From assembly GCA_046756725.1 (NCBI GenBank), contig JBHHWW010000032.1:1-15696 (forward strand): a stretch of DNA of 15,696 nt. Reading direction: 5' to 3'. Positions 1 through 15,696 of the stretch are shown piece after piece. This DNA comes from Nitrospiria bacterium (lineage in GTDB: Bacteria; Nitrospirota; Nitrospiria; SBBL01; JAADHI01). The notes under the pieces are model-generated. The model did not search any database. It was not told the DNA's origin and worked only from the letters and a program-made list of their open reading frames with translations. The position numbers and the translations under genes were made by a program. Every line of letters begins with the position of its first letter. Positions within the stretch are counted from its first letter, which is position 1.

Positions 1-226
1 CAGGCGGTTCGATCAAATTGGTCGAGGAAGGCGCGTGCCGCCAGGTTGACGGCGGATATGTGGCCGGGGACAACTAAGTGTGAGGGGACAAACAAATGAA
101 CGAGAACGAAATCTCGAGAATTGTAGTTGACCGTGCACTGAAGGTTCATAAAAGGATGTTTAGGTAAAGTACGAGGACATTGTATTTGAAAGGGGATTTC
201 GGATTGCATTGTGAACAAGAAAGTGA

Positions 227-1534
227 TCATTGAGATGTCGGTCGATTCTTATGGACGACAAGGTGTTTCTTGTCCACTTCCTTTATTTTAAAGAAAATGC
301 CTGCTGCCAGGACAAGAATGAATATGATTGAAATTGCCAACCCCTTACGGCGGAACTGTAATTCCGCCAGGGCGACCTTGCCTGCAAGAACGGCTTCATC
401 AACCAAGCTTATTCCTTCCCGGGTCACTTCTTGCGTTTGATTTTCCGACAGACTGTGAACCATGGTGCGGGCCTTTATCAAAGCGTCCCCGGCATCTTTG
501 ATCTGGAAATTTGCTTCGCTTACTTCCATGCCGGCACGTTCGGCAGTTGAGACCAGACTATCTGCGAAGAGAATCTTGCTTTTGAGCCTGTCAATATGTT
601 GGCGCATGGCAACAGCAGCGAGGTATCCTTTAGAGTCCTCCTCATGGCACTCGATACAAATGCTGGAATCGCCGCCCCCGACCATGTCGTCCGTCGGATG
701 CTGAATATCGTGATTCCCGTGACAGGTCTCGCATTCCGGCAACTCGAGCGCTTCAAAAGCCGCGCGATGGGGGCTCTTCAAAAACAATTCGCTGTTGTTC
801 AGATGACATTGACCGCAGATGAAGGCGATGGAAGGAGCGTCCGGTGGCGAAGCGCCATGATTTCCGTGGCAATCATTACAGGCTGGCGCGGCTTGATCAC
901 CTTTCTCCAACAAAGTGACACCATGGACGCTTTGGCGATATTGAGCGACCTGATCAGTTAGAATATCATGCTCTTGCATATAACCCGCGTCCGCATGACA
1001 CTTGCCGCATGTTGCCGGGATATTCAACGGATAAACCGAGGAGCGAGCGTCTTTGGCATCGCGAATGCCATGAACGCCATGGCAATCGATGCAGGTAGCG
1101 ACTTTCGTATCTCCCTTTTGCAGAAGTTTGCCATGTGTGCTGGATCTGTAACGCTCAAATTGGTCCGTAGACATCCTTGGATTGAAGCGGTGCATATAAT
1201 TGGGGTCGCTGTGACACCTGGCGCAAAACTGCGGGATTTCATTTCGCGTTGGCACGCCAATGTATCCTTTTGCCGGATCCATGGATGCCTCCATATCCCC
1301 ATCTAATCCTAACGTCGCGTCGCCGCCATGACAATCTACACAAGATAAGCCCTGTTGGGCGTGTACATCGGTCTTCATTTCCTCTACGGGAACCGTCAAA
1401 TCATCGTCGATTTCCAAGTGGCAGGACACACAGCTATTTACCTCTCCAGATTGGGCCTCTTCCTGGGCTACGCTAGCATCAATCCAACATAGAAAAAGTA
1501 TGAATATCGAGATCGCAATTGCTCTATGTTGCAT
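227..1534 (-). CDS. Nonaheme c-type cytochrome with Sec signal peptide and C-terminal transmembrane anchor. The ORF track gives 227..1576, but the ATG at 1534 is the preferred start because it has a GAGAGGGAA Shine-Dalgarno 7 nt upstream and begins the signal peptide.
   Basis: Nine CxxCH motifs (CVSCH, CVDCH, CARCH, CIDCH, CGKCH, CNDCH, CGQCH, CETCH, CIECH), several in a CxxCHGxHG context. Signal peptide MQHRAIAISIFILFLCWIDASVA/QEE. C-terminal hydrophobic helix LAISIIFILVLAAGIFF followed by a basic tail. Confidence 0.85.
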   Translation of the reverse strand: MQHRAIAISIFILFLCWIDASVAQEEAQSGEVNSCVSCHLEIDDDLTVPVEEMKTDVHAQQGLSCVDCHGGDATLGLDGDMEASMDPAKGYIGVPTRNEIPQFCARCHSDPNYMHRFNPRMSTDQFERYRSSTHGKLLQKGDTKVATCIDCHGVHGIRDAKDARSSVYPLNIPATCGKCHADAGYMQEHDILTDQVAQYRQSVHGVTLLEKGDQAAPACNDCHGNHGASPPDAPSIAFICGQCHLNNSELFLKSPHRAAFEALELPECETCHGNHDIQHPTDDMVGGGDSSICIECHEEDSKGYLAAVAMRQHIDRLKSKILFADSLVSTAERAGMEVSEANFQIKDAGDALIKARTMVHSLSENQTQEVTREGISLVDEAVLAGKVALAELQFRRKGLAISIIFILVLAAGIFFKIKEVDKKHLVVHKNRPTSQ

Positions 1535-1556
1535 GACTGATTTCCCTCTCACACAG

Positions 1557-2693
1557 TTAAAAAGTCTGAGGTACAAGGTATGAGATTAGTGTCATGATGA
1601 TGATGTAAGCCAGGGCCAAGACGCCCAAAACAGTGACGAGTCTACCTGATTGACCGAGCCTGGATTTGCGATCCCAAAATGGCACCAACACCAACAGAAC
1701 ACCACTAACTCCAAAGCCAGCAATGCCTAATACTTCGCCATCGAGAAACAACAGTTTGGCCGGAATGAACTTCAAAGTTTGAAACATGAAAACAAAATAC
1801 CATTCCGGTTGGATGCCGGCGGGCGCAGGCGCGAACGGATCCGCCTTAACGCCAAGCTCCCAGGGGAAGAGCGCAGCGATGGCCACCAGAACCCCCAAAG
1901 CCAAAACCCAACCGAGGACATCGCGCAACAAAAAATTCGGAAAGAAAGGCATCGATCGTATCGGCTGACCACTCCTTTCTAAGCTTAACGGTACGCTCAT
2001 CCCCTGCTTTTGCACGACCCAAAGGTGGAATGCCAGCAATAGCGTGGCAATCATCGGCAGGACGGCCACATGAAAGCCAAAGAAACGGGTCAGGGTTGCG
2101 CCAGTGACATCTTCACCGCCGCGCAGGAACTTCAATAAGAATCCGCCGACAAGCGGCACAAGCGCTACGACTTCAGTGCCGACTTTTGTAGCAAAAAAGG
2201 CGAGCTCGTTCCACGGCAGCAAATATCCTGAGAATCCAAACCCTAATGAAAGAAAAAGCAGAAAGACACCACTGACCCACGTCAGCTCTCGCGGTTTACG
2301 ATACGCCTTCATGAAATAGACGCTGAACAAATGAATGAACGCCGCGGCGACCATTAAATTCGCCGACCAACTGTGAATCGAACGAATCAGCCAACCGAAA
2401 CGCACCTCCGTCATGATAAATTGAACACTTTCGAACGCGGCCTCCGCCGTGGGCCGATAGTAAAGCAAAAGCAAAATTCCCGTTATCACCTGAATGACAA
2501 AAAAGAACAACGTGATGCCGCCGAAATAATACCAGATGCTGTGGCGATGCATGGGAACACGTTTCTTTGCAAGGAAGGATTCCAGGGCACTGATGTCATA
2601 GCGTTCTTTGACCCAAAGTAATATTCGCTGTCCGATCGTTCCGTTCGACTGCGGGGATGGCTTCAATTGAGTTTCCTTAGGCATTTGAGCCAT
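1557..2693 (-). CDS. Cytochrome b of a Rieske/cytochrome b (bc/b6f-type) complex, with the cytochrome b6 and subunit IV portions fused in one polypeptide.
   Basis: Two His pairs spaced by 13 residues on transmembrane helices ([17 protein letters not shown] and [17 protein letters not shown]). A conserved [11 protein letters not shown]-type N-terminal segment. A PEWY motif (IQPEWYF) in the C-terminal subunit-IV-like half. Multiple hydrophobic helices. The 378-aa length fits a fused b6/SUIV. Confidence 0.88.
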
Positions 2694-2771
2694 TGTTTTT
2701 CTTCATCTCCTAATAGTGGCGACCTGCTAACTGTTTGAAACTTGCTTGCGGATTAGCTACCTCCGAATTCA

Positions 2772-3269
2772 TCAAGCTGTTTTCGTAACGACTATATCCT
2801 CCCCTCTAATCTCGACATTGTAGGCTTCTAAAGGACTGGGCTGCGGACCGGAGATATTCTTTCCGGTCAAATCAAAATGGCCGTTGTGGCAGGCACACCA
2901 GATATGCTTGAAATCCGACCGATACTGAACGGTACACTGCAAGTGCGTACAGATGGCCGTGAAGGCTACATACTCATCATTCTGTGTGCGAACCAGGATA
3001 CCCGGCTTGCTGCCGAATCGAAAGATCTTACCGGCATTTAACGCAAGCTCACCAACCCTTGCCGCGACCACGCTGCTCTGGACGGCCTCCTGAACTTTCG
3101 GAGGGATGATGAAATTGACGAGTGGGACAAATATCGCACCCAATGTTGTCAAAAGACCGCCGCCGAGCAAGAAGTTTACAAATCTTCGGCGGGGCATCTC
3201 ATGGCTTTGAGAACTTTCTTCTGCAGTTTCAGATAACCGATTTGGAGATTTTGACTTCATGGCAACCAT
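2772..3269 (-). CDS. Rieske [2Fe-2S] iron-sulfur protein with a TAT signal and membrane anchor.
   Basis: Twin-arginine motif PRRRFVNFLLGGG followed by a hydrophobic helix. Rieske box I CTHLQC and box II CACHNGH. An AGGAG Shine-Dalgarno 6 nt upstream of the ATG. It lies immediately upstream of cytochrome b. Confidence 0.88.
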   Translation of the reverse strand: MVAMKSKSPNRLSETAEESSQSHEMPRRRFVNFLLGGGLLTTLGAIFVPLVNFIIPPKVQEAVQSSVVAARVGELALNAGKIFRFGSKPGILVRTQNDEYVAFTAICTHLQCTVQYRSDFKHIWCACHNGHFDLTGKNISGPQPSPLEAYNVEIRGEDIVVTKTA

Positions 3270-3280
3270 TCCTGACTCCT

Positions 3281-4189
3281 CTACTCCTTCCTTGCATCAG
3301 GTTGCATCGTCTTATTTAGTGCAGCCAGTCCGGAAAAAGTACCCATGTTGAGAGCATCGGAGACGGTACTGGGAACCACCATCAAAGAGCCCTTCTCCTT
3401 CATCCCTTCATAAAGTATGTTCATTGCTCGAAGATGGAAGGCCGTGGGATTCTTTTCATAGCGTTTGGAAGCTCTTTCAAACTTCTCAGCGATCTCGACT
3501 TCAGCATCACCCAGGATGACCCGAGCCTGTTTTTCTCTTTCAGCCTGAGCCTTCCGAGACATAGCATCCTCGAGGTCGGCAGGGATCACCACATCGCGGA
3601 TTTCCACCGACCTCACCGAGATTCCCCAATCATGCGTACGTTCATCGATGATGATTCGGAGTTGCTCATCGATCGCCTCTCGACCCGTCAGCATATCTGC
3701 AAGCATGGTCTTTCCGATAACATCTCGCAACGCAGTCTGGGCCGCCCAGGCGACTGCGTCGTTATAGTTTTCCACGTTGAGTGCTGCTTTTTGGGCATCA
3801 TGTACTTGCCAAAACAGAACAGCATCGACATTGACAGGAACCGTGTCGTGAGTTAGTGTCTTTTCAGCCGCAAATCCGGTAGCTCTCACCCGTTGGTCGA
3901 GCCACATGACTACCCGATCAATCATTGGAATGACCCAGAAAAGGCCAGGGCCTTTCAAACCAATAAACCGCCCCAGACGCAGGATTACTGCCTTTTCCCA
4001 TTGATTTGCCAGCCTTGCTGTGAGGGAAATGACGAAACCTAGCGGAAGGCCGATGAGAAAGACAAGAGTCCGCGCTACTGCATATTCTGGGCGTGGCGCT
4101 AATACCAGACCCAAAACTATGACCATTGTCCACACGGCAGCCAAAATGGCGAAGCTAATGATATTATACCCAAAGAATTTTGGTCGCAT
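3281..4189 (-). CDS. SPFH/band-7 (stomatin/prohibitin-like) membrane protein.
   Basis: Two N-terminal hydrophobic segments followed by the stomatin-type core EKAVILRLGRFIGLKGPGLFWVIPMIDRV. A C-terminal Ala/Glu/Lys-rich coiled region (KAQAEREKQARVILGDAEVEIAEKFERA). A strong AGGAGG Shine-Dalgarno upstream. Confidence 0.85.
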   Translation of the reverse strand: MRPKFFGYNIISFAILAAVWTMVIVLGLVLAPRPEYAVARTLVFLIGLPLGFVISLTARLANQWEKAVILRLGRFIGLKGPGLFWVIPMIDRVVMWLDQRVRATGFAAEKTLTHDTVPVNVDAVLFWQVHDAQKAALNVENYNDAVAWAAQTALRDVIGKTMLADMLTGREAIDEQLRIIIDERTHDWGISVRSVEIRDVVIPADLEDAMSRKAQAEREKQARVILGDAEVEIAEKFERASKRYEKNPTAFHLRAMNILYEGMKEKGSLMVVPSTVSDALNMGTFSGLAALNKTMQPDARKE

Positions 4190-4311
4190 GTTCAGACCTC
4201 CTTTTTCGATTTGAACACTCCCGGATTTAGTTTGTTACAATTGACTCAAAACAAGAACGACCTCGGGTAGACTCATCCCGCAAGCCCCGTTAAATGGTCT
4301 GTCTCGCCGCC

Positions 4312-5535
4312 CTAGTTTTCCGTTTTCCCCGACCTCGAGAAAGAGCGCAGGTAGGCATATAAGTTTGCCATATCCCTGCCGCTCAATTCCTGCCATTTCA
4401 TTTTTCTTTCTTGGAGTATCTTGTGCATTGCCGGAGCGTGATTCCACATGGCCGTAATCATTGCAAGAGGCGAGTCCAGTGCGCCGAGTGCTGCCAGGTC
4501 TGCTGAGATTCTTGCACCTTTTCCCTGCAACGAATGGCAAGTCAGGCATGCTTTCTCATTAAGGATTTTGTATCCCTCCTTGGTATCTCCTGGGGGGTCT
4601 TTGAGCTTGAGCCCATAAATATAGGCAATGACATCCGCTATTTCTCCTTTCTCGAAGACGGGAAAAGCAATACTCTCTCTTTTCATGACCTCCCACATTT
4701 GGGGACCGTGATTCCACATCTTACCAGCGATTTGTGTAACAGAGTAATTAAGGTCGAGCTCAGTAAAATCAGGACCCAAATTGTTGCCATCAGCGCTAGC
4801 TGCATGGCACTTCATGCACCCCTTTTTCTCCGCAATTCTGTAACCAACGACAGGATCGCCGAATGCAAAATCCCCGGGGTGGTCTCTTCGAGGAGACATG
4901 AAAGATCTTATGCCCGCAGCAAGATTGACGATCTCATCATCCTCGAATTCTGGTCGTTTGACTTTATGTTTCTCAAAGATTTCAAGCAGATTTGGTCCGT
5001 GATTCCACAAGGCTTCAGCAAGTTTTATGGGTGCCATATAGTCCTCTATTGCACTAATGTCAGGGCCGACGTCACCACCGACGCCACCAAATTTATGACA
5101 GGTTACACACCCCTTGGATTTCAAAAGCTTCCTGCCTGAAAATTCGATGCCGGGCTCTCCAAGATATCTGAAATAAGCAAGATAGGAAATAAGCTGCGAC
5201 ATTTCCTCACTGTTGAGTTCCGTGAACTGATAACCCGTCTGTCGCATTTTTTGGGACATACTTGGGAAATGATTCCACATCAGCGCTGCTAATTCGAGAT
5301 AGGTGCCATAAAATTTCTGCTTGCCCAGGTCAGGGCCGCCATTGCCATTTTCTCCATACACGGCATGGCATTGGTTGCATCCCTTTTGCCTGAATACTTC
5401 CCGCCCCTTCCATGGCGATTCCAACGATGTGCTTATCTGGGCGCTGACCGAGGAGAACATGAGCACCAGCAACACAAGTGTGAGGCACGGGCCGAAATGG
5501 CTTGATTCCGTTCGGCGTTTGTTTATTGCTAACAT
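4312..5535 (-). CDS. Tetraheme c-type cytochrome made of four tandem class-I (monoheme) cytochrome c domains, with a Sec signal peptide. The ORF track gives 4312..5580, but the ATG at 5535 is the preferred start because it begins the signal peptide and follows a GAGGGA Shine-Dalgarno.
   Basis: Four CxxCH motifs (CNQCH, CVTCH, CMKCH, CLTCH). Each is followed by a GPD(L/I/F) motif and then M/LWNH(F/G/A)P, a candidate Met sixth ligand, and a C-terminal YL-type helix, giving four repeats of roughly 100 aa. Signal peptide MLAINKRRTESSHFGPCLTLVLLVLMFSSVSA/Q. Confidence 0.85.
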   Translation of the reverse strand: MLAINKRRTESSHFGPCLTLVLLVLMFSSVSAQISTSLESPWKGREVFRQKGCNQCHAVYGENGNGGPDLGKQKFYGTYLELAALMWNHFPSMSQKMRQTGYQFTELNSEEMSQLISYLAYFRYLGEPGIEFSGRKLLKSKGCVTCHKFGGVGGDVGPDISAIEDYMAPIKLAEALWNHGPNLLEIFEKHKVKRPEFEDDEIVNLAAGIRSFMSPRRDHPGDFAFGDPVVGYRIAEKKGCMKCHAASADGNNLGPDFTELDLNYSVTQIAGKMWNHGPQMWEVMKRESIAFPVFEKGEIADVIAYIYGLKLKDPPGDTKEGYKILNEKACLTCHSLQGKGARISADLAALGALDSPLAMITAMWNHAPAMHKILQERKMKWQELSGRDMANLYAYLRSFSRSGKTEN

Positions 5536-5542
5536 AGTTCCC

Positions 5543-6763
5543 TCACTTGCTTTGATGAATGCTCCCGGTTTCAGGGGCATGACATTGCTGAACTCCTTCG
5601 TAACAGGATTTCATCAATCTTGCTCTCTTACATTGGCTACAGAGTGATAGCGTCTCGAAGAGGGCATCCCCACATACTTCTTTCGAAAAAGATGCCAGAA
5701 CCCGCTGCTGTATTTTGTCTGGAGAATAGACCACACCGCAACCGGAACATCTAGTTGGCTGAGTTGCTGCTACTTCAATCCACTTCTGCTCTGTGTCTGC
5801 TTCTTGGTGGTCGTATCCAGGAAACAACTTGATAGCTTCTTGTGGACACAGAGCTAAACATTGCTCGCATCCGCTGCACAGCTCCGATTTGAAAAGAAGT
5901 CGAATGCTTTGCTGATCGCTGGTAATCCGAAACGCTTCTGTAGGACAGCCACTGACACATGCTCCACAGAGAATGCAATCGTAAGAGTTGACCTCTAAAA
6001 TACAACCTGCCTCTTTCCCCATGATTTTCCCACGAAGTTGGTGAACCAATTCCTTTTCATGCCTGGAACTTGCCGGCGAATTCAGGACTTTTGCTTCCTG
6101 CTTATGAATCTCGTCTCTGAGGTTCTCCAGGTCACCTGAGACGAAGTCTCGCAATACCGCGGCTAATGAGCGATAAAAAGGTGAATCGGTGCTCGACTCA
6201 ATTTTATTACTGAATTCGGAAGCCCATACACCCAGATGTTTCACTAGAAAGTCATACTGTTTGAGTAGATATTGCAGCGCTATTTCGGCTCTACAATTGT
6301 GCCTGGCTTCATACTCTCTTTCACACAAAAGGGCCATGTATTCCAGTTCAGCTACAATATGATCAGGCAAATCATGAAAATCATGCTTCATAAAGAAGCC
6401 TTCCAAACCATATTCTCTACAGATACTGAATATCTGTTCATCCAAGACCTGATGATTTGGACTTCTATAAATGGATTCGTATGGATGAGCTTTTGGCGAA
6501 TAGGGCCCGACAAAAAGACGGTTGTATTCGATTTCCAAATTCTGCCAAAAGGTGTACTCATTATTTTGGGCGTTCGTTTCAATGAATTGTAATAATTCTG
6601 CGCTCGGCTTTCGATACGCTGAAAAAAGATAATCTCTTGTCTGTTGGGAAAGTATTTCCATCAGTGAGTGTTCATTGTTCGAGGAAAACAACGCCCGGTG
6701 TGGCCGCCCAAATGCCACGGCCAAACCTGCATATATTTCCATCCTGATCTTAGCTCCAACCAT
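5543..6763 (-). CDS. TorD/DmsD-family redox-enzyme maturation chaperone fused to a C-terminal 2x[4Fe-4S] ferredoxin domain with an additional Cys-rich tail.
   Basis: The N-terminal half carries the TorD signatures EYNRLFVGP, HPYESIY and LPDHIVAELEYMALL. The C-terminal half has CILCGACVSGCP and CSGCEQCLALCP (the CxxCxxCxxxCP pattern of 4Fe-4S sites) plus CSGCG...CSQCKRAR...C..C.H. A GGAAGGA Shine-Dalgarno sits 7 nt upstream, and the start abuts the upstream gene's stop as TGAATG. Confidence 0.8.
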   Translation of the reverse strand: MVGAKIRMEIYAGLAVAFGRPHRALFSSNNEHSLMEILSQQTRDYLFSAYRKPSAELLQFIETNAQNNEYTFWQNLEIEYNRLFVGPYSPKAHPYESIYRSPNHQVLDEQIFSICREYGLEGFFMKHDFHDLPDHIVAELEYMALLCEREYEARHNCRAEIALQYLLKQYDFLVKHLGVWASEFSNKIESSTDSPFYRSLAAVLRDFVSGDLENLRDEIHKQEAKVLNSPASSRHEKELVHQLRGKIMGKEAGCILEVNSYDCILCGACVSGCPTEAFRITSDQQSIRLLFKSELCSGCEQCLALCPQEAIKLFPGYDHQEADTEQKWIEVAATQPTRCSGCGVVYSPDKIQQRVLASFSKEVCGDALFETLSLCSQCKRARLMKSCYEGVQQCHAPETGSIHQSK

Positions 6764-8449
6764 TCAAAGTTCCTTCCACTGTACAATGCGAGTCTGGGCT
6801 GCAGGAGCAAACATGTGCCACGGACTTGAATTTGTTCTAGGTTGTATCAGGCAAATTTGCAAAGGAATCATACACAATAGGAGAATTCCCGTGAGCCATT
6901 TGACAGGGGCATAATCGTACATCCAGGTGGAAAAACCCCAGACCATCAATCCAATTCCCAACATAAACGTTCCAATCACCATTATTCTCTTTGCTGTCGG
7001 CGGCATTTCGATTCGGGGGAGAAAAACGTGTTTTTCGCTGTTCTTGATTTCATAGTCTTCAGGCAGCTCGATGACAGGCAGCAACTTGATCAGAATCGTA
7101 AAGAACAGGATACCAAAAAGCCAGGTCCCCAATACAACGATAAGTTCGCTTATGGTCGGAACATACGGAGCAACTTTGTAGGGTAGTAATGGATGATAAA
7201 ATGATGGGACAACGATGAGAAAACGAATCATCCACAGGGCCATGTTTATCAGAATTGATGCAAATACGGTCAGGCTGATGCTGCAGATTTTGGGATTACA
7301 GCCTTGAATAAACAGCAAAAAGAACGGAAAAAGTAATCCGCCTAGTAAAGTAGGCCAGGTCAATATGGCAAATCGTCCCCAGAGATAATCAGTCCAGACT
7401 TTATGGTCGGCTTCAGGGGCAGAGTATAATCCCGTCAGTATTTCACTAAATAGAAAATACATATAGAGCCAGGTTACAAAGCCCAGGAAAATACCCAATC
7501 CTTTGAACATGCGCGCCGGAAGAAATTCATCCCAGTCATAAATTTTTCGTAACACCGCTATGATGATAATCATTGCTGAAAATCCAGAGACAATTGCTCC
7601 CAAAACGAAATAAGGCGCCATAATAGGATTAAACCAGCCCGGTCTACCCGGCTGCAGTCCGAATACAAAGCCGTAAACCGAATGCACCGAAACCATGATG
7701 GGTAAAATGATCACCGCACACCACCAGATTGTGCGGTTATGGGTTTCCTGCACCTGTCTTGTGTCTCTGTAACCAATGGCCAAAATTCGATAAAGCCAGC
7801 GTTTTTTGGGTATTAACATAGAAGAAATGCAAAGATCTCTCCGCATGGCTAAATACAGGTAAACCGAGCTGCCTATGACATACCATGTAATAACCGTCAT
7901 GGACCAGACAAACGGGGCATGGATGCGACCGTGCAGGACAACATTGACCAAGAATCTATCTGGCCTGCCAACATCCAACATAATATTTAAGACCGCTGCG
8001 GTCATAGAAACCAGCGTAACCAACTCAGCAATCCTCGCCAGAGGTTTGTATCTCTCTAAATTCATGATCCGGACACTGGCCGAAATGGCAATGCCAACAT
8101 GGCTGATTCCGATGAGGTGAATAATATTGGCGACAATAACCCCCCACATGGCTCCCTTGGTGCTAAGACCCTGTACACCATGACCGACTAAAGTCTGATT
8201 AGTAATCACATACATCCATCCCGAAAGCAGCAGTAGTAATCCCCCTATAAAGAAATAGAATCCTCTGCTGGTGCTCAACAATGGCCGGAATGCACTTTCA
8301 AGATTCATTACTGCTTTAGAATCCAAATGGTCTCTGTTCCAGGTAAAATCTGGAGCTTTGAAAGTAGAATTTACTTTTGCTTCATGCAACCCGCTTTGCC
8401 GCTCTCCTGCAAAAGGTGATGCTTGTTCTGTCTTGGTCCGCAACATCAT
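6764..8449 (-). CDS. NrfD/PsrC-family integral membrane quinone-interacting subunit of a complex iron-sulfur molybdoenzyme. It is a long form with roughly 10 or more predicted helices.
   Basis: About 60 N-terminal cytoplasmic residues, then FYFFIGGLLLLLSGW and WGVIVANIIHLIGISHVGIAISA, typical of the NrfD family. Hydrophobic helices continue through a C-terminal extension (…TWMYDYAPVKWLTGILLLCMIPLQICLI). The start overlaps the upstream ferredoxin-subunit stop as ATGA. Confidence 0.8.
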   Translation of the reverse strand: MMLRTKTEQASPFAGERQSGLHEAKVNSTFKAPDFTWNRDHLDSKAVMNLESAFRPLLSTSRGFYFFIGGLLLLLSGWMYVITNQTLVGHGVQGLSTKGAMWGVIVANIIHLIGISHVGIAISASVRIMNLERYKPLARIAELVTLVSMTAAVLNIMLDVGRPDRFLVNVVLHGRIHAPFVWSMTVITWYVIGSSVYLYLAMRRDLCISSMLIPKKRWLYRILAIGYRDTRQVQETHNRTIWWCAVIILPIMVSVHSVYGFVFGLQPGRPGWFNPIMAPYFVLGAIVSGFSAMIIIIAVLRKIYDWDEFLPARMFKGLGIFLGFVTWLYMYFLFSEILTGLYSAPEADHKVWTDYLWGRFAILTWPTLLGGLLFPFFLLFIQGCNPKICSISLTVFASILINMALWMIRFLIVVPSFYHPLLPYKVAPYVPTISELIVVLGTWLFGILFFTILIKLLPVIELPEDYEIKNSEKHVFLPRIEMPPTAKRIMVIGTFMLGIGLMVWGFSTWMYDYAPVKWLTGILLLCMIPLQICLIQPRTNSSPWHMFAPAAQTRIVQWKEL

Positions 8450-9138
8450 TAGAATCCTTCTTTCAAATAAATGACTTTGGGGTGTGTTCCCATCTCTTCC
8501 AACAAATGAAAAGCCCGCGAACTTCTGGCCAACATTGACACGGTACTTTCCGGATCATCCAGATCGCCAAAAAATCGTGCGCCCCCGGGACAAGTCTGAC
8601 AGCAGGCTGGCAGTTTTACGACCTCTTCGTCGCGGATCTTTCGTTTTTCCTTCTGTGCCCGCTCTTTCACTTTGTGGATGCGCTGTATGCAGAAATTGCA
8701 TTTTTCTACCACCCCTTTACATCGAACGGACACCTCCGGATTTAGCTGCTTATCCATTGGTAAAGGCCATTCTGACTGATACCAGTTGAAAGCCCGAGCT
8801 GAATAAGGACAGGCACACATACATAGGCGACATCCAATACAACGGTTGTAAATCTGCCCAACTATTCCTTCTTGATTCTTGTATGTGGCATGAACAGGAC
8901 ACACTTTGATACAGGCAGGATTTTCGCAATGCATGCATGGGCGCGGAATAAAATGAGCCTTCGCATAAGGATATTCTCCCTCTATGCTCGAGATGACTTC
9001 TGTCCAAAAAATCGCCCGCCCCTTCTTAGCCTCCACAGGACCGACAAATGGGATGTTGTTCTCTGCCACGCATGAAATCGTGCAAGCCTGACAGGCTGTA
9101 CATTTATCCAGATCAATGACCATACCCCATTTTGCCAT
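8449..9138 (-). CDS. Four-cluster [4Fe-4S] ferredoxin electron-transfer subunit of the PsrB/DmsB/ArrB type.
   Basis: N-terminus MAKWGMVIDLDKCTACQACTISC. Four Cys groups: CTACQACTISC, CMHCENPACIKVCP, CIGCRLCMCACP and CNFC...CCQTCPGG. An AGGAG Shine-Dalgarno upstream. 229 aa. Confidence 0.88.
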   Translation of the reverse strand: MAKWGMVIDLDKCTACQACTISCVAENNIPFVGPVEAKKGRAIFWTEVISSIEGEYPYAKAHFIPRPCMHCENPACIKVCPVHATYKNQEGIVGQIYNRCIGCRLCMCACPYSARAFNWYQSEWPLPMDKQLNPEVSVRCKGVVEKCNFCIQRIHKVKERAQKEKRKIRDEEVVKLPACCQTCPGGARFFGDLDDPESTVSMLARSSRAFHLLEEMGTHPKVIYLKEGF

Positions 9139-9177
9139 GGACCATCTCCTTTATGAATGCTCCTCCATCCAGAGTCG

Positions 9178-11607
9178 CTAAGCTTTATATACTTTGACTT
9201 TGGTTGAATAAAAGGAACAAAGTCCTCCCAGGTAGTCAAACTCAGGAGTAAGAATTTCATTTGGGTTCACACCAAGTTCCTGAGCCCAGCGTCCATATTT
9301 CGTATGCCCATATTCGAAGGGCATACTGACAATATCTGGTTTTGCGCCAGCAAAGAGTCTGGCTTCGACTTTGATCTTACCAATTTTCGATTCTACCCAA
9401 ACTGAATCGCCATCATGAATCCCCAGTTCTGCGGCACTTTGGGGATTTATTTCTAACCACGGTCCCCATTTCATTTTGACCTGTAGACCGAACGACTCTT
9501 GCAGCCAGGGTAGGTTGGCTCCTCTTCCTTCAGCATGGGTCATCGTCTTGTAGGTACTTAAATAGAATGGAAAATCACCATGGTTGCCAGTATATCTTAC
9601 TGGCTCATAATGTGGCATAAAAACCCGGTCGCCACGAGCTTCGAGTTTCAATCCACGCAATATTTCTTCCCACTCCTGCTCTATCTCAGAACCGTGTTCG
9701 TCTGCTTGTTTTGCTGCAAACTCCTCTAATTTCTGTTGCATAAGTTGAGAATAAAATTCAAACTTTTTTGATGGGGTAGCAAATACCTCTTCCCATTTAC
9801 CGTATTCATAAGGAGGATTCCACCATCCGCCATTCTTCAGAAGTTCATCCCAGAAATCTTCAGAATCCCGGGCCATGATTGACCCTTTTCGAGCACGAAG
9901 AACACCTTGTACTCGATATTCGATCATCTCCTGATAATCTTCCCAGGGGAAGCTCGCCGCTACGCTTCCTCCAATGGCTTTGGCTATTTTGATCATTACA
10001 TCCGCTGTGTTCATGGTATCATAAAGTGGCTTGACTACGGGCTGTCTGATGCCGAAAAGTGGAAATCCGACACTGGGATCAATTTCGTCATCCTGCCATC
10101 TTTCGAGATAGGTATGATCGGGCAGGATGAGATCAGCCTGACTTGTGGCCTCATCCATAAAAGGCGAAAAACTGACGATGAACGGAATATGAGAAAAAGC
10201 CCTGTAGTAACGTTCAACTCGAGGAGCTGAAAACAGCGGGTTTGTATAATAAAGAAAAAGCGTGTCTATGGGATAAGGTTTCGCCTGAGTAATATTGTCT
10301 GGCAAGGCGGAATAAATATTTGCAGTAAAAGGGAATTTGGCTGTTCCTGCGCTGTCAACACGAGGCATGGACACGCCCTTTTTGCTGATGTCATCCTGGA
10401 CGACATCAGGCCAGGGTTGGAATGGAGGTCTTCTCTGTTTCAGAACGCCCCCTGGCGCATCTATGCTTCCCACGAGCGCATTTAGAGAATGAATGGCCAT
10501 ACAATTAAACACGCCATTTGACTGCATACTGACACCCCGCACACCAGCGGCAAAAGCTGGCTTCGTTTCGGCAAATTCCCGAGCAATTTTCATTATGGTT
10601 TTGGCTGGCACACCCGTTATTTCAGTCACGATTTCTGGCGGATAGTCTTCCCGGACCATGTTCTTGAAACCTAAATGGATATTGCCCGTCTCATCCTGCC
10701 AATCTTCAAAACCAAAAGTGCGCTCCTCAATGAAGCTGCGGTCATATAACCCTTCAGAAACAATGACATGAGCCATTCCTAAGGCCAGAGCGCTATCTGT
10801 CCCATGATTTATCGAAATCCAATCATCCGCCTTCGAGGCGGTTACTGAAAAACGTGGATCGACACAGACAATTTTTGTCCGAAAACCAGGTCGCCCTCTT
10901 CTCATGTGACCATACATGCGCAAGAGCATGGTTGTAGGGCGCCAGGCTTCTAGCAGGGAAGCGCCAAAACAGACCAGATAGTTGACGTTTTCCCAGTCGT
11001 ATGCCGCATAATTCGCCCAACCTTGTGTAAAGTAGTGGGCTAGTTTTGAGCCATCGGATAGAATGGAACTATGACCTAAATCATTAGGTGAGCCGTAGGC
11101 GGTCAAAAACCTGTTCATGAGGTCGTGCATGCTTCCGCGATAGCGTCCACCCATAATTGCCAGGGTATGCGAGCGCTCTTCATTTCTTATTCTTTCCAAT
11201 CTTTCAGCCACGAGACTTATGGCCTCACCCCAGGAGATGGCTACCCATCTGTCAGAACCTCGCTCACCTACCTGTCTCATTGGGCCCTTGATGCGATCGG
11301 GATCGTAAAGGACCTGAAGTCCGGCCTGGCCCTTGGGGCACAAGCGCCCTTGATTGGTTGGATAGGAAGGATTCCCCTCAATTTTGACGGCATTGCCATT
11401 CACAACTTTCACTTGAATCCCGCATCCGCCAGGACATTGCAGGCAGATACTTTTTAGCCATTTTTCCTCATCAACTTCTATCCTGCCTTCTCCAGCTCTC
11501 CCCAATGCCTGCGTAATTCGAGTGGGTCGACAGCCGGTTCCTAAAGCAACAGTGCTGCCGAAAATACCGGTCATCTTCAAGAATTTTCGTCTCGTAATTC
11601 TTGACAT
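9178..11607 (-). CDS. TAT-exported molybdopterin (Mo-bisPGD) oxidoreductase catalytic subunit of the PsrA/PhsA/ArrA-like clade. Substrate is not determinable from the sequence alone.
   Basis: Twin-arginine signal SRITRRKFLKMTGIFGSTVALGTGC. N-terminal [4Fe-4S] motif CLQCPGGC...RLCPKG (C-x2-C-x3-C-x~27-C). 809 aa. A perfect AGGAGGAG Shine-Dalgarno upstream. Followed by FeS, NrfD and TorD-like genes. Confidence 0.85.
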   Translation of the reverse strand: MSRITRRKFLKMTGIFGSTVALGTGCRPTRITQALGRAGEGRIEVDEEKWLKSICLQCPGGCGIQVKVVNGNAVKIEGNPSYPTNQGRLCPKGQAGLQVLYDPDRIKGPMRQVGERGSDRWVAISWGEAISLVAERLERIRNEERSHTLAIMGGRYRGSMHDLMNRFLTAYGSPNDLGHSSILSDGSKLAHYFTQGWANYAAYDWENVNYLVCFGASLLEAWRPTTMLLRMYGHMRRGRPGFRTKIVCVDPRFSVTASKADDWISINHGTDSALALGMAHVIVSEGLYDRSFIEERTFGFEDWQDETGNIHLGFKNMVREDYPPEIVTEITGVPAKTIMKIAREFAETKPAFAAGVRGVSMQSNGVFNCMAIHSLNALVGSIDAPGGVLKQRRPPFQPWPDVVQDDISKKGVSMPRVDSAGTAKFPFTANIYSALPDNITQAKPYPIDTLFLYYTNPLFSAPRVERYYRAFSHIPFIVSFSPFMDEATSQADLILPDHTYLERWQDDEIDPSVGFPLFGIRQPVVKPLYDTMNTADVMIKIAKAIGGSVAASFPWEDYQEMIEYRVQGVLRARKGSIMARDSEDFWDELLKNGGWWNPPYEYGKWEEVFATPSKKFEFYSQLMQQKLEEFAAKQADEHGSEIEQEWEEILRGLKLEARGDRVFMPHYEPVRYTGNHGDFPFYLSTYKTMTHAEGRGANLPWLQESFGLQVKMKWGPWLEINPQSAAELGIHDGDSVWVESKIGKIKVEARLFAGAKPDIVSMPFEYGHTKYGRWAQELGVNPNEILTPEFDYLGGLCSFYSTKVKVYKA

Positions 11608-11632
11608 TATCTCCTCCTGATAACGGTCATTC

Positions 11633-12307
11633 CTAATAATGACAGACTAAGCAATCATTGTCGGCATCCATTTTCTCATGACAATCCATACAGGTCTCCA
11701 TTTTCATTTTCATTTTGAGCCCGAACGACATGGAAGCCATTTCCACCCTGACGTGACAGTCGCGACACTCCACCTGGCTATTCGTCACATGTCGTTCATG
11801 CGAAAAGTGTGTATCCCCGGTTAAATAGTTGTTGACCCTTACCCAATTAATCATCTGCCCGTCATTGATATAGACCATGAGCTTACTTTCTTCCGGATGA
11901 TCTGAAATGGTCTCCTGATGGCAAATTATGCATACATCTATGTTGGGGATTGAAGCCCGATGGCCTAGAATTGATTTTCTGTGGCAACCAACACACGGTC
12001 TACTCTCAGGTCTTTCTCGAAGATTTGTCTCCAGGAATATCTGATGGCAGCCCGAGCAATCTTTGATTCTGGGGGTATCCTCTACGGCTTCATCAAAACT
12101 TCCATGACATTCCATACACTCACCTTTTTCCAGTTCCTCTGGAATTTCCCCAAGGAGTTCCTCATGCATGGCAAAATTGGCTTTCTTATGGTCGCCTTTT
12201 GCAAAATATTGAAAATGGATTTTGTGATTGAAATCTATTGGCTGTTCAGATTCGTAAGTACATCCGAGGAGAAAAAGCAAAATCACTTTCATTATGATAG
12301 TCTTCAT
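11633..12307 (-). CDS. Heptaheme cytochrome c3-like lipoprotein. The ORF track gives 11633..12325 using a TTG start, but the ATG at 12307 or GTG at 12310 is preferred because it is preceded by GAGGA and begins a lipoprotein signal.
   Basis: Seven CxxCH motifs (CMECH, CSGCH, CVGCH, CIICH, CRDCH, CMDCH, CLVCH). A lipobox (MKTIIMKVILLFLLGC). His-rich spacers (FNHKIHF, THFSHERHV) of the kind seen in c3-family multiheme proteins. It is the first gene after the 200-nt intergenic region. Confidence 0.8.
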   Translation of the reverse strand: MKTIIMKVILLFLLGCTYESEQPIDFNHKIHFQYFAKGDHKKANFAMHEELLGEIPEELEKGECMECHGSFDEAVEDTPRIKDCSGCHQIFLETNLRERPESRPCVGCHRKSILGHRASIPNIDVCIICHQETISDHPEESKLMVYINDGQMINWVRVNNYLTGDTHFSHERHVTNSQVECRDCHVRVEMASMSFGLKMKMKMETCMDCHEKMDADNDCLVCHY

Positions 12308-12377
12308 CACATTGTTTTTCCTCAAAATCGGTTTTAGAATAATGAAAATGCCAGATTGCGCCAGTTTAGCTGAAAAT

Positions 12378-12393
12378 TACAACTTTCATGCCA
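12378..12393 (-). promoter_or_regulatory. Candidate sigma-54 (-24/-12) promoter for the cytochrome/molybdoenzyme operon.
   Basis: The minus strand reads TGGCAT-GAAAG-TTGTA against the consensus TGGCAC-N5-TTGCA. Spacing is correct, but the conserved -12 GC is GT. It lies about 55-70 nt upstream of the first gene start and directly downstream of a sigma-54 activator gene. Confidence 0.3.
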
Positions 12394-12465
12394 TGTCAAT
12401 CGCAATGAAATTAACCAGACGAAAACACAGAAGTTAGGAGGGTGTGGGATAAACAGACGACACGC

Positions 12466-12489
12466 TGACGGTTTGACGATTAGCCGTCA
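12466..12489. promoter_or_regulatory. Inverted repeat TGACGG-N12-CCGTCA with additional TGACG half-site copies. It is a candidate enhancer (UAS) for the NtrC-type regulator.
   Basis: A perfect 6-bp inverted repeat about 85 bp upstream of the sigma-54 candidate. Direct TGACG/GACGA copies occur at 12456..12460 and 12475..12479. Confidence 0.3.
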
Positions 12490-12526
12490 TCTCAAAAAGG
12501 ATAGCTTTTGATAAGCACTTGAGTAA

Positions 12527-13957
12527 TCAGACATTTAGAGGATGATCATATGGTGACGTTGAATCGTCATTTGTTGACGGATTATCGAGGGATCTCAAAC
12601 GGGCAAGTTTGTCGCGCAGAGTTGTACGGGGAATGTTCAGTAGTTTGGCGGCTTTTACCTGATTCCCCTCTGCTTCTTTCAAAGCCCACAAGATTAATTT
12701 AGCTTCCACTTCCGAAACGGCCTCGGAGAGATTAATCTGTTTGTTTCCACCAGGATCAAGAGAAACCATGCCATCCTGCGCGTGGACATCTCGAATGTAG
12801 TCGGGCAGATCGTCAACGGTGATGCGATCTGATTTGGAAAGTGTCACTGCATGTTCCACGATATTTTCCAGCTCCCTGACGTTACCCGGCCAATCGTGCC
12901 TGAGTAGTACTTTTTGTACTTCATGAGTAAAATAATGTAAGGATTTATTTCTCTCTTTGCAGAGTTTCTTCAGAAAATGCCGGGCCAGAAGAGATATGTC
13001 CTCGCGGCGCGCCCTTAATGGTGGCAACTCAATCTTAACCACGTTGAGGCGATAATAAAGGTCTTCTCGGAATTTACCTTCCGAAACCATCTGTTGAAGG
13101 TCTTTTTTTGTCGCGCAGATCACGCGCACGTTCACTTTTAAGGGCTGCTCACCTCCCACCCGTTCGAAAGCTCTCTCTTCGATCACCCTGAGGAGCTTGA
13201 CTTGAAGCTCGACCGGAATATCATCCACGTCATCCAGGAAGATTGTACCTTTATCCGCTAACTCAAACCGTCCGCGTTTGCGGCGCAACGCTCCGGTAAA
13301 GGCACCCTTTTCATGACCGAAAAGCTCACTTTCGAGGATTTCACGATTCAAAATAGCGCAGCTTAGTGTTATGAAAGGACCATATTTTCTGTGGCTATTG
13401 TAATGAAGTGCATTGGCCAGAAGCTCCTTTCCGGTTCCCGTTTCTCCTTGTATGAGAATGCTCGTATCACTGTCTGCCACTGCATCAGCCTTCTCATATA
13501 TGGTTCGCATGGCCCTGGAGTGACCGATGAGATTCTGATAGCAATACTGAGACTGGATTTTCTTCTGCAAAGTCGCAATTTGTACTTTACCCTTGCGATA
13601 CTCCATCAGGCGATTCAGTTTGATGGATAACGCATCATAGGGGAAAGGTTTGGTAATATAATCGTAGGCCCCCTCTTTCATCGCTTCTACAGCATTCTCG
13701 ATCGTGCCGTAGGCCGTCATCATAATCACTTCTATCTCGGGTGAAAGTCTCTTGATTTCTCTCAAGAAAGTCAACCCATCCATAGATGGCATCCGCAGAT
13801 CCGTAACCACCACATCAAAGGAACTCTTCCTGAGGTAGTCAAGACCTACAAACGCATTCTCTCCAATCTCGACACTGTATCCCTCGTCTTCCAGTTGTGT
13901 CTTCAAGGTCACGCGTTTCAGCTTTTCGTCATCAATTACAAGAATTTTGCCTTTCAT
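12527..13957 (-). CDS. Sigma-54-dependent response regulator (NtrC family enhancer-binding protein).
   Basis: Receiver domain (VVVTDLRMPSMDG). AAA+ sigma-54 activation domain with Walker A GETGTGKE, the GAFTGA motif (ESELFGHEKGAFTGA) and Walker B IFLDDVDD. C-terminal Fis-type HTH (AAKLLNIPRTTLRDKLARL). The start overlaps the kinase stop as ATGA. Confidence 0.93.
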   Translation of the reverse strand: MKGKILVIDDEKLKRVTLKTQLEDEGYSVEIGENAFVGLDYLRKSSFDVVVTDLRMPSMDGLTFLREIKRLSPEIEVIMMTAYGTIENAVEAMKEGAYDYITKPFPYDALSIKLNRLMEYRKGKVQIATLQKKIQSQYCYQNLIGHSRAMRTIYEKADAVADSDTSILIQGETGTGKELLANALHYNSHRKYGPFITLSCAILNREILESELFGHEKGAFTGALRRKRGRFELADKGTIFLDDVDDIPVELQVKLLRVIEERAFERVGGEQPLKVNVRVICATKKDLQQMVSEGKFREDLYYRLNVVKIELPPLRARREDISLLARHFLKKLCKERNKSLHYFTHEVQKVLLRHDWPGNVRELENIVEHAVTLSKSDRITVDDLPDYIRDVHAQDGMVSLDPGGNKQINLSEAVSEVEAKLILWALKEAEGNQVKAAKLLNIPRTTLRDKLARLRSLDNPSTNDDSTSPYDHPLNV

Positions 13958-15696
13958 TGTTCATCTCTCGTCGGTAACAAAACGCTAACAGTGGTTCCCT
14001 GGCTTGACTTGCTGGTAATGGTGATTTTCCCACCATGTTCTTCGATAATTTTTCGACTAATGGAAAGGCCAAGTCCTGTGCCCTTTTCAGTATCTTTGGT
14101 GGTAAAGAAGGGACTGAATATTCTTTCCAGATTTTCCTCCGAAATGCCGCATCCGTTATCTGATATCCTCACCTGCGCAGAGGGATTCGAGTCCTGGTTT
14201 GGTACTTCGGTCTCAATCCCAATGCGCCCACCAGATTTACCATCCAAAGCATCAGAAGCATTAATGAGGATATTTATGAAAACCTGCGAGAGATTGTAGG
14301 GGTCGCCAAATACCTTTGGTAACGACCTATCTTGATGGGACACCAACTCAATGCCTTGATCCTCAATCTTGTGCTTAATCAAAAGCAGTGATCTCTCTAC
14401 CACCTCGTTCAAATCGATGATTTCCATCTTTAGCTTGTGGTGCTTGGAGAAGATTAGAAGCCTTCTCACGATAAAAGCAATTCTTTCTATCCCTTCCGAA
14501 ATCAATTCGAACATAGTGTTCGCTTTCGTTATGTTGCCAGGATTCTTCTGGATGATGTCCAAACAATTTTGTATTCCATCCAAAGGGTTATTGATTTCGT
14601 GAGCTACACTTGCGGCCAAACGCCCGATGGAGGTCAACTTTTCGGTGTGAATCAGTTGTTCTTCAATGAACTTGCGCTCTGTGATATCTCGCCTCAACTC
14701 GATTACTTGAAAGATCTCTCCATTTTCGTCCCGAAGAGGAGAGCAATAAATCTCCAGATATTTCTCTCTTCCACTTCTGTCCAGGAAAGTGTGTAATGTC
14801 TTTTGCAAACTGCCTTCCTCAAAAGTTGTTTTGGCAGGGCACCTTCTCAGCAAGTCCTGATCACAGGAGATTTCTGAATCTTGCACGATCGTGAAGCAAC
14901 CTCTTCCAATGATGTTTTCTCTGGAGCCACCGCACTTATTCAAGTAGGCATCATTGGCAGTGACAATCTTATAGTCTCGGTCTACGACCACAATCTCATC
15001 GTCAATCCCATTGATGACATGCTCCAGATAATCTTTGTGCCTTTCCACTTCGTTTAAAGTGTCCTTTAAATTGGCAGTCATTTGGTTAAAGCTCCTGGCC
15101 AGATTGCTAATCTCATCATTTTCTTTGAATTCGATTACTTCATCTAAATTGCCTTCACTAATACGAAGCGTCGTGTCTGTAAATTTTTTGATTCTCTGAA
15201 GAATGAGCTTATTTACCAACAGGCCCAACACCGCACTGGTGACCAGAACCATGACGAGAGCCATCCCAAATATTTTGTTACTGTTAGAAGCCAATTGCCT
15301 TTGCGTATCCGCCATGGACAAATCCATCACCAAAATACCATTTATTTTCTCATCAGCATCATGACAGTCATAACACCGGGGCCGGTTATAAATGAGGCTC
15401 ATATTTCTGAAAATTTCTGTACGTTTTTCATCTTTGGCAATCGTCGTGTTTTTTCGCCTTACCGGAGAGTACTGGTGGCAAACCAGACAAATTGGATCAA
15501 CATTGTTTTTGTAGACTTTTCCCACCATTTTAGGATCAGAGGATATCTTCAACTCGCCCCTTTTGTTCAAGATCATGATTCGTTCCACACCCGATTGCTC
15601 AGAGAGTCTCTTTACCTCTTCATTCAATAAATGGGGCTCTTTTTGGAGCATAGCGGTTTCCAAAGTATTTACCACCAATCTACTGAGATTTGTAGT
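13954..15696 (-). CDS. Sensor histidine kinase, N-terminally truncated by the window edge. Its periplasmic sensor domain carries two heme-c binding motifs.
   Basis: The reading frame stays open to the window end, so the TTG at 15678 is not a real start. CLVCH (15475..15489) and CYDCH (15361..15375) lie before the transmembrane helix IFGMALVMVLVTSAVLGLLV. Then come a HAMP-like linker, a Cys-containing PAS region, an H-box SVAHEINNPLDGI, an N-box NILINASDAL, and G-boxes DNGCGI and GTGLGLSI. Confidence 0.88.
   Translation of the reverse strand, partial: TTNLSRLVVNTLETAMLQKEPHLLNEEVKRLSEQSGVERIMILNKRGELKISSDPKMVGKVYKNNVDPICLVCHQYSPVRRKNTTIAKDEKRTEIFRNMSLIYNRPRCYDCHDADEKINGILVMDLSMADTQRQLASNSNKIFGMALVMVLVTSAVLGLLVNKLILQRIKKFTDTTLRISEGNLDEVIEFKENDEISNLARSFNQMTANLKDTLNEVERHKDYLEHVINGIDDEIVVVDRDYKIVTANDAYLNKCGGSRENIIGRGCFTIVQDSEISCDQDLLRRCPAKTTFEEGSLQKTLHTFLDRSGREKYLEIYCSPLRDENGEIFQVIELRRDITERKFIEEQLIHTEKLTSIGRLAASVAHEINNPLDGIQNCLDIIQKNPGNITKANTMFELISEGIERIAFIVRRLLIFSKHHKLKMEIIDLNEVVERSLLLIKHKIEDQGIELVSHQDRSLPKVFGDPYNLSQVFINILINASDALDGKSGGRIGIETEVPNQDSNPSAQVRISDNGCGISEENLERIFSPFFTTKDTEKGTGLGLSISRKIIEEHGGKITITSKSSQGTTVSVLLPTRDEQ

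Follow-up and report, generated by a model that had tools for sequence, protein, structure and literature searches.

What does a membrane histidine kinase with two c-type heme attachment motifs in its sensor domain respond to, and which genes does it govern? The question is raised by contig JBHHWW010000032.1 of a Nitrospiria bacterium (assembly GCA_046756725.1), of which positions 1 to 15,696 (the window) were analysed; all sizeable open reading frames (ORFs) of the window lie on the minus strand. One of these, a histidine kinase gene at 13954..15696, has its 5' end cut by the window edge; coordinates below are window positions on the minus strand unless another contig or strand is named. The analysis favours, with a probability that we put at about 0.65, a kinase whose two-heme Cache domain would read redox state or gas in the periplasm and drive the adjacent respiratory operon through the sigma-54-dependent regulator encoded beside it.

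The two motifs, CLVCH (15475..15489; residues 70-74 of the protein fragment encoded in the window) and CYDCH (15361..15375; residues 108-112), supply the only four Cys residues among the first 250 of the fragment. Both precede the membrane helix, as had been noticed in an earlier inspection of the letters alone (hereafter the sequence-only reading), with 141 window residues ahead of the helix where roughly 135 had been counted. From the Cys and His frequencies of the non-cytochrome proteins of the window, 0.001 CxxCH motifs are expected by chance in the sensor region, and the probability of two or more is ~6e-7. An exhaustive HMMER search with the 169-residue sensor plus second transmembrane helix (TM2) fragment as query, in which the presence of a motif was not a search criterion, returned 776 cluster representatives at E <=1e-3 and 227 at E <=1e-10. 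Two CxxCH motifs ~38 residues apart occur in 138 of the 150 best representatives, and the rest include one truncated fragment, one protein with CX3CH at the first site, one with CX4CH at the second, and ~8 that keep site 2 but have at site 1 a CxxC with Q, P, T, R, L or G as the next residue. This motif pattern in the best 150 argues that site 2 (CYDCH) is essentially universal and that site 1 (CLVCH) is a usually retained addition. The His of site 1 is replaced by P, T, R, L, G or Q in P0076, P0088, P0111, P0131, P0145 and P0072, with the CxxC staying in place; such a first site may be a heme site with another proximal ligand, or a disulfide. The word-indexed protein search detected hardly any of the sensor family (1 match by sequence, 3 by profile), and cluster look-ups for 10 representatives gave one name only, 'ATP-binding protein', from a Desulfatiglandales metagenome-assembled genome (MAG); the public annotation of such sensors is limited to 'ATP-binding protein' or 'hypothetical'.

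The sensor domain itself (15274..15696; fragment residues 1-141) is predicted to form a single Cache/PDC fold (pLDDT 92), in which CYDCH lies in the loop between strands 94-103 and 118-127, before the last β-strand. A profile of 36 relatives (A1) searched against the PDB finds the sensor domains of two Geobacter sulfurreducens chemoreceptors, GSU0582 (3B47, E 2.6e-8) and GSU0935 (3B42, E 3.7e-8), the next match falling to E 0.002, and a Foldseek search with the sensor model places 3B42 at rank 2. In the profile alignment CYDCH superimposes motif to motif on CQSCH, the heme site of both chemoreceptors. A candidate distal axial ligand for the heme at this site (heme 2) is Met64 of the full-length protein (fragment Met16; 15649..15651), which is present in 119 of 125 relatives (95%) and aligns with chain residue 26 of 3B47 and 3B42; with a numbering offset of 34, counted from the published His143/His144 and the PDB titles, that residue is Met60. 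The sensor regions of the 125 relatives contain no conserved His or Met other than Met64. Among the 36 relatives, Pfam matches at E <=0.01 are to PF21563 (Mcp40H-20_sensor) in 30, PF11845 (Tll0287-like) in 11 and sCache_3_2 in 11. Because of the profile matches to 3B47 and 3B42, the alignment of CYDCH with CQSCH and of Met64 with Met60, and the Pfam matches of the relatives, we assign the predicted domain to the heme-c Cache sensors (sCache_heme, GSU0582/GSU0935 type), in agreement with the earlier suggestion of a Geobacter-type heme-c sensor, which the distal Met and the Cache/PDC fold now support.

CLVCH is the motif that is extra relative to the monoheme sensors of Geobacter. In the model it sits on a short helix (residues 68-74) between β2 and β3, in a segment ~12 residues longer than in GSU0582/GSU0935 (profile positions 96-136 versus chain residues 58-86). 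In CitA-type PDC domains the β2-β3 'major loop' and the β4-β5 'minor loop' close over the ligand pocket; if this layout holds here, the two hemes would lie side by side over the canonical pocket. The window encodes three c-type cytochromes with 20 CxxCH motifs in total, and the host must therefore possess a cytochrome c maturation system.

The side of the membrane on which the motifs lie was predicted after recovering the missing end of the protein. The kinase frame runs uninterrupted for 580 codons plus stop up to the window edge, and P0001, a partial protein 91% identical, starts with a short basic stretch and a transmembrane helix, both upstream of the point where the window ends. The last 55 nt (8001-8055) of contig JBHHXT010000077.1 (L008), from the MAG 'bacterium isolate D_1_bin.22', are identical to window 15642-15696. 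Beyond this overlap L008 encodes (V/M)RITPFYQRLDIKLILGLILSLLVVGLPFFAFFYNFHKHQLIDGLKVS from a GTG start preceded by the ribosome-binding site AAAGAGGTG, adding the 48 missing residues, including the first transmembrane helix (TM1), to give a joined protein of 628 aa, the same length as P0002, the closest full-length relative. The exact 55-nt overlap looks like a k=55 assembly-graph break inside the kinase gene, and the window and L008 are probably from one assembly; we infer the join between them, and the same N-terminus is found in homologues, TM1 being seen in P0001 and P0002 as well. A lookup via the regulator protein returned as its sole match a shorter 3.7-kb contig that does not extend the kinase gene.

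The rebuilt protein contains just two hydrophobic segments (Kyte-Doolittle, window of 19 residues), ~14-33 (TM1) and ~190-214 (TM2). TM2 is a 25-residue hydrophobic segment, IFGMALVMVLVTSAVLGLLVNKLIL (15199..15273; fragment residues 142-166), with QRIKK and a HAMP domain (15064..15216; Pfam PF00672, E 1.2e-12; fragment residues 161-211) next to it. Since TM1 lies on one side of the sensor region and TM2 on the other, and the cytoplasmic HAMP domain directly past TM2, the ~155 residues between the two helices, with both motifs, are predicted to be periplasmic. The sequence-only reading had proposed this topology and had described the gene as cut by the window end with TM1 and the start absent, advising that the contig be extended and the topology predicted; both steps bear it out, P0001 and L008 agreeing on ~48 missing residues, L008 supplying them together with TM1, and HAMP following TM2 at once.

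On the cytoplasmic side the HAMP domain leads to a PAS domain (14671..15003; Pfam PAS_4, PAS_9; fragment residues 232-342) and a kinase core (13966..14625) made up of HisKA (14440-14625, E 1.1e-9; fragment residues 358-419) and HATPase_c (13966-14307, E 2.4e-26; fragment residues 464-577; both Pfam). An H-box (SVAHEINNPL) and G-boxes (DNGCGI and GTGLGL) are present, as in HisKA-class kinases, and the domain content identifies the predicted product as a two-pass membrane histidine kinase. The PAS domain contains three Cys in the pattern G..C-x10-C-x7-CP, which among 52 relatives are kept in 41 (Cys315), 37 (Cys326) and 39 (Cys334; full-length numbering). Through this trio the kinase could sense redox state or a metal in the cytoplasm as well.

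The likely partner of the kinase is encoded by the next gene (12527..13957), whose ATG shares 4 nt with the kinase stop (ATGA), an overlap that supports the earlier claim that the kinase is co-transcribed with a sigma-54 activator. Its 476-aa product is an NtrC-type sigma-54-dependent response regulator (Pfam Response_reg, Sigma54_activat with E 1.6e-71, and HTH_8) with GAFTGA and Walker A motifs, so that a kinase stands here beside a receiver-AAA+-HTH protein. In the 200-nt gap (12326-12526) between the regulator gene and the cytochrome gene that follows it lies TGGCATGAAAGTTGT (12379..12393), which resembles a sigma-54 -24/-12 element. Among related loci, sought in GTDB genomes with a 5-sequence alignment, GG-N10-G(C/T) elements occupy the equivalent position in five of six (L002, L003, L005, L006 and L007), and it is for its position and this recurrence across loci that we give the window element weight. 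The gene order kinase, regulator, multiheme cytochrome, molybdopterin-family subunit, FeS subunit and NrfD-like subunit is conserved in L005, L006, L007 and L009, and in L002 and L003 as far as their contig ends. Sensor identity in these syntenic loci ranges from 91% down to 40%, and their MAGs are labelled Nitrospinota, KSB1, 'Cytophagia' or unclassified. Some of the loci have an extra single-domain receiver gene past the regulator. The wider family is more varied in its outputs, 80 more distant two-heme sensors carrying HAMP in 72, HATPase_c in 58, GGDEF in 14 and HD in one. The sensor module is thus a portable input, and the subgroup to which the window kinase belongs is the one tied to this operon.

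We infer that the kinase controls the operon at 6764..12325. Its first gene encodes a cytochrome with seven CxxCH motifs (11633-12325), and the others encode an ArrA/QrcB-like molybdopterin-family subunit (9178-11607), a QrcC-like 4Fe-4S subunit (8449-9138) and an ActC/NrfD-like membrane subunit (6764-8449). The best solved relative of the large subunit is ArrA (6CZ7, E 2e-108, full length); in the alignment HSSVC of ArrA, which contains the Mo-ligating Cys, is matched by HSSIL, with Leu in place of Cys, and the GRY, HS and Lys that we take to be the other motif residues of that ArrA segment align as identical. The HSSIL segment is variable in the syntenic homologues of L005, L006, L007 and L009. 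Against the NCBIfam ArrA model (NF041714) the large subunit scores 404.8 bits, where the cut-off is 1600, which places it outside ArrA as that model defines it, while the best NCBIfam matches of the small subunits are Qrc components, all under cut-off, and the membrane subunit resembles ActC of ACIII. The large subunit may therefore be non-catalytic like QrcB or ActB, although a TorD-like chaperone is encoded nearby, and the complex may be a Qrc/ACIII-like module for electron transfer between quinone and cytochrome, not a substrate-converting molybdoenzyme. Such a module would fit control by a periplasmic redox sensor. The operon had been described as heme- and Mo-rich; the first half of that description stands, and the second is doubtful now that the Mo-ligating Cys is seen to be replaced by Leu.

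Further genes follow downstream on the same strand (227..6763), encoding a TorD-ferredoxin protein, a 4-heme class I cytochrome c, an SPFH protein, a Rieske protein, a cytochrome b and a membrane-anchored cytochrome with nine CxxCH motifs. In the first of these products (5543-6763) a ferredoxin-like 4Fe-4S region forms the C-terminal part of a protein whose residues 49-184 are a chaperone domain of the TorD/NarJ type, a fusion that is unusual for a Tat-proofreading chaperone. The genes at 227-3269, for the Rieske protein, a fused cytochrome b (b6 plus subunit IV-like, 378 aa) and the 9-CxxCH cytochrome with its C-terminal anchor, are predicted to encode a bc-type complex in which the multiheme cytochrome replaces c1/f. 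SPFH/Band 7 genes stand on both sides of the system, one in the respiratory operon (3281-4189) and one directly upstream of the kinase as part of an NfeD-SPFH pair (L008 6201-7552, plus strand); the two flanking genes hint at membrane-microdomain organisation of the complex.

Several characterised systems resemble this locus in part. GSU0582 and GSU0935 share with the window kinase the fold of the sensor, its position between two transmembrane helices, the CxxCH before the last β-strand and the distal Met on the N-terminal helix; they differ in having one heme and a chemoreceptor (methyl-accepting chemotaxis protein, MCP) output, whereas the window protein has an additional CxxCH and a HAMP-PAS-histidine kinase output. 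In both chemoreceptors Met60 becomes a heme ligand when the heme is reduced and gives way to CO or NO, resulting in a Met60/His143-144 switch (PMC8396549). DcrA of Desulfovibrio vulgaris, a monoheme chemoreceptor likened here by its description, is also a transmembrane transducer with a periplasmic c-type heme that responds to redox or oxygen (PMC8396549). With the sCache_heme/Tll0287-like domains (PF11845) the window sensor shares the Cache fold, the extracytoplasmic location, fusion to HAMP, kinase or GGDEF and a cytochrome-like CxxCH insertion before the last strand, the hallmark of that family (Deshpande et al. 2026, PMC12889525). Members of that family have a single CxxCH and act as NO sensors or stand-alone redox proteins, and a second heme motif is not discussed (PMC12889525), while the window sensor has two.

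Sensors with two motifs have also been noted in the literature: GSU0591, GSU0599, Adeh_2011 and Adeh_3383 are listed as homologues of GSU0582/GSU0935 'with an additional heme-binding motif' (Londer 2006 as cited in PMC3831638; PMC8396549), and GSU0599 appears as a two-component protein with two motifs (PMC8396549). The likeness of these four to the window kinase is drawn from the published descriptions. The neighbouring tag, bccR (GSU0598), encodes a sigma-54 regulator on which induction of the bc-cytochrome operon cbcBA at falling potential depends, in a paper that makes no mention of the kinase (bioRxiv 10.1101/2021.04.15.440034). Judged by locus-tag adjacency, GSU0599 would pair with BccR in striking parallel to the kinase and regulator of the window. 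The targets differ, CbcBA being that of BccR in Geobacter and a Qrc/ACIII-like plus Rieske-cytochrome b cluster the likely one here.

The AioXSR and ArxXSR systems also combine a membrane kinase and an NtrC-type sigma-54 regulator beside molybdopterin-family, FeS, NrfD-like and TorD-like genes. The window differs from them in the heme motifs of its sensor and in a large subunit that lacks the Mo-ligating Cys of ArrA/ArxA, and neither the ORFs of the window nor the 8 kb upstream (L008) contain a gene for an AioX/ArxX-type Phosphonate-bd protein, leaving two components where those systems have three. The reading of a bona fide ArrA/ArxA under AioXSR-type control was rejected. The sequence-only reading had contrasted a heme sensor with the binding protein of those systems; this holds for the window and the 8 kb upstream but is not general, for L009 (GCA_900175145.1, FWWM01000606.1) has an AioXSR/ArxXSR-like trio alongside. 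That trio, a Phosphonate-bd protein, an sCache_3_2-HAMP kinase and a sigma-54 regulator (3290-7069), is close upstream of the two-heme kinase operon on the opposite strand, which suggests dual control of one respiratory cluster.

These comparisons allow a mechanism to be proposed. Heme 2 (CYDCH, proximal His160) would be the ancestral site, with its sixth ligand, Met64, on a long N-terminal helix continuing TM1, while heme 1 (CLVCH, proximal His122) would be carried by the added short β2-β3 helix beside the canonical Cache pocket, where it could relay entering electrons or offer an open coordination site to a ligand. If the domain behaves like those of GSU0582/GSU0935, the hemes would equilibrate with the periplasmic pool of electron carriers or bind a diatomic gas, and reduction or ligand exchange would move Met64 on or off heme 2 with a change between high-spin and low-spin states. 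The resulting shift of the Met-bearing helix relative to TM2 would be passed through HAMP and PAS to the dimerisation and histidine phosphotransfer (DHp)/ATPase core, the kinase would phosphorylate the co-transcribed NtrC-type regulator, and the regulator would activate the sigma-54 promoter ahead of the cytochrome, Qrc/ACIII-like and Rieske-cytochrome b operon.

Several observations weigh against this picture. A single-sequence PDB search with the sensor gave no match, the window kinase has no PF11845 match in the Pfam scan, and its own PF21563 score (20.5 bits) is under the gathering cut-off of 27. Covalent heme at both motifs is a prediction, as is the side-by-side geometry, and there is a single conserved distal ligand for two hemes, the CLVCH heme having no conserved sixth ligand. 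The join of L008 to the window depends on a 55-nt assembly overlap. The -12 element reads GT where the canonical one is GC, and a window-wide scan for the sigma-54 consensus is at chance level (17 matches against 15 expected). The sensor module is also found on GGDEF, HD and hybrid kinases in unrelated contexts, and since it is fused to other outputs elsewhere, the module alone does not specify this operon. Finally, the characterised signalling sCache_heme domains act as NO sensors, not redox sensors (PMC12889525).

This last point leads to the alternative that has to be taken most seriously, namely that the architecture is as described and the physiological signal is a diatomic gas, NO or possibly CO, acting at an open heme 1 or displacing Met64. 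The signalling-type sCache_heme domains bind NO and not O2 (PMC12889525), CO and NO displace Met60 in GSU0582/GSU0935 (PMC8396549), and the want of a conserved sixth ligand at heme 1 recalls the cytochrome c'-type gas binders. The conserved partner of the kinase is, however, an operon for electron transfer (cytochromes, Qrc/ACIII-like complex and Rieske-cytochrome b complex), the genes of the window and the syntenic loci include none for NO detoxification or denitrification, and gas sensing has no need of a second heme, a feature more characteristic of electron relays. Because the target operon is an electron-transfer chain we favour sensing of redox poise, as part of the whole picture to which the probability of about 0.65 applies, and regard a gas signal as possible but clearly the less probable of the two. 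A monoheme sensor like GSU0582/GSU0935, with heme at CYDCH only and CLVCH serving as a structural disulfide or metal site, is less likely again. The ~8 relatives with a His-less CxxC show that the two Cys can be retained in the absence of a heme ligand, and the PDB profile search provides no solved homologue of the first site; set against this, a His immediately follows the second Cys in ~140 of 149 relatives that were not selected for it, and in the model CLVCH begins a short helix as in cytochromes c. The Ccm and Ccs systems, moreover, attach heme to accessible periplasmic CxxCH motifs, which also counts against a bare first site.

The link to the operon might be questioned in place of the chemistry of the sensor: the kinase-regulator pair could control distant genes and lie beside the respiratory genes incidentally, as the imperfect -24/-12 element and the unrelated contexts of distant family members would allow. 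We consider this slightly more improbable still, given that the gene order is conserved in eight loci across differently labelled phyla down to 40% sensor identity and that the equivalent intergenic site carries a -24/-12-like element in other loci as well. The possibility that the motifs arose by chance, lie in the cytoplasm or belong to another ORF is negligible. Chance is refuted by the probability of ~6e-7 and the retention of both motifs across the family, a cytoplasmic location by the TM1 and TM2 boundaries with HAMP past TM2, and a different ORF by the single open frame.

Reading periplasmic redox state or gases directly is something for which few means are known, heme-c Cache sensors among them. 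The two-motif variant is already in the literature (PMC3831638, PMC8396549), to which the window kinase adds a further case; it has been noticed since 2006 and never characterised, and the open-access literature searched yielded no biochemical characterisation of a two-heme domain. The present locus offers a clean, conserved example from uncultured lineages in which a sigma-54 regulator connects a two-heme kinase to an operon for respiratory electron transfer. A bolder and more tentative idea, which we think rather unlikely, is that the two-heme Cache domain is a dedicated sensor of redox potential, with heme 1 as an electron-entry 'antenna' and heme 2 as a Met-switch transducer, and that its widespread family, of at least 776 clusters at 50% identity, is the general means for anaerobes to suit their respiratory modules to the potential of the acceptor. 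Should the signal be NO or CO instead, the sCache_heme family of NO sensors would be extended to a diheme form. If the redox-sensor reading is true, respiratory modules would be matched to the potential of the acceptor in this way, the Qrc/ACIII-like module here and CbcBA through GSU0599 and BccR in Geobacter; GSU0599 would then be a candidate for the unknown sensor upstream of BccR, and the family would provide a molecular handle on the way in which organisms of the Geobacter type gauge the redox potential of electron acceptors.

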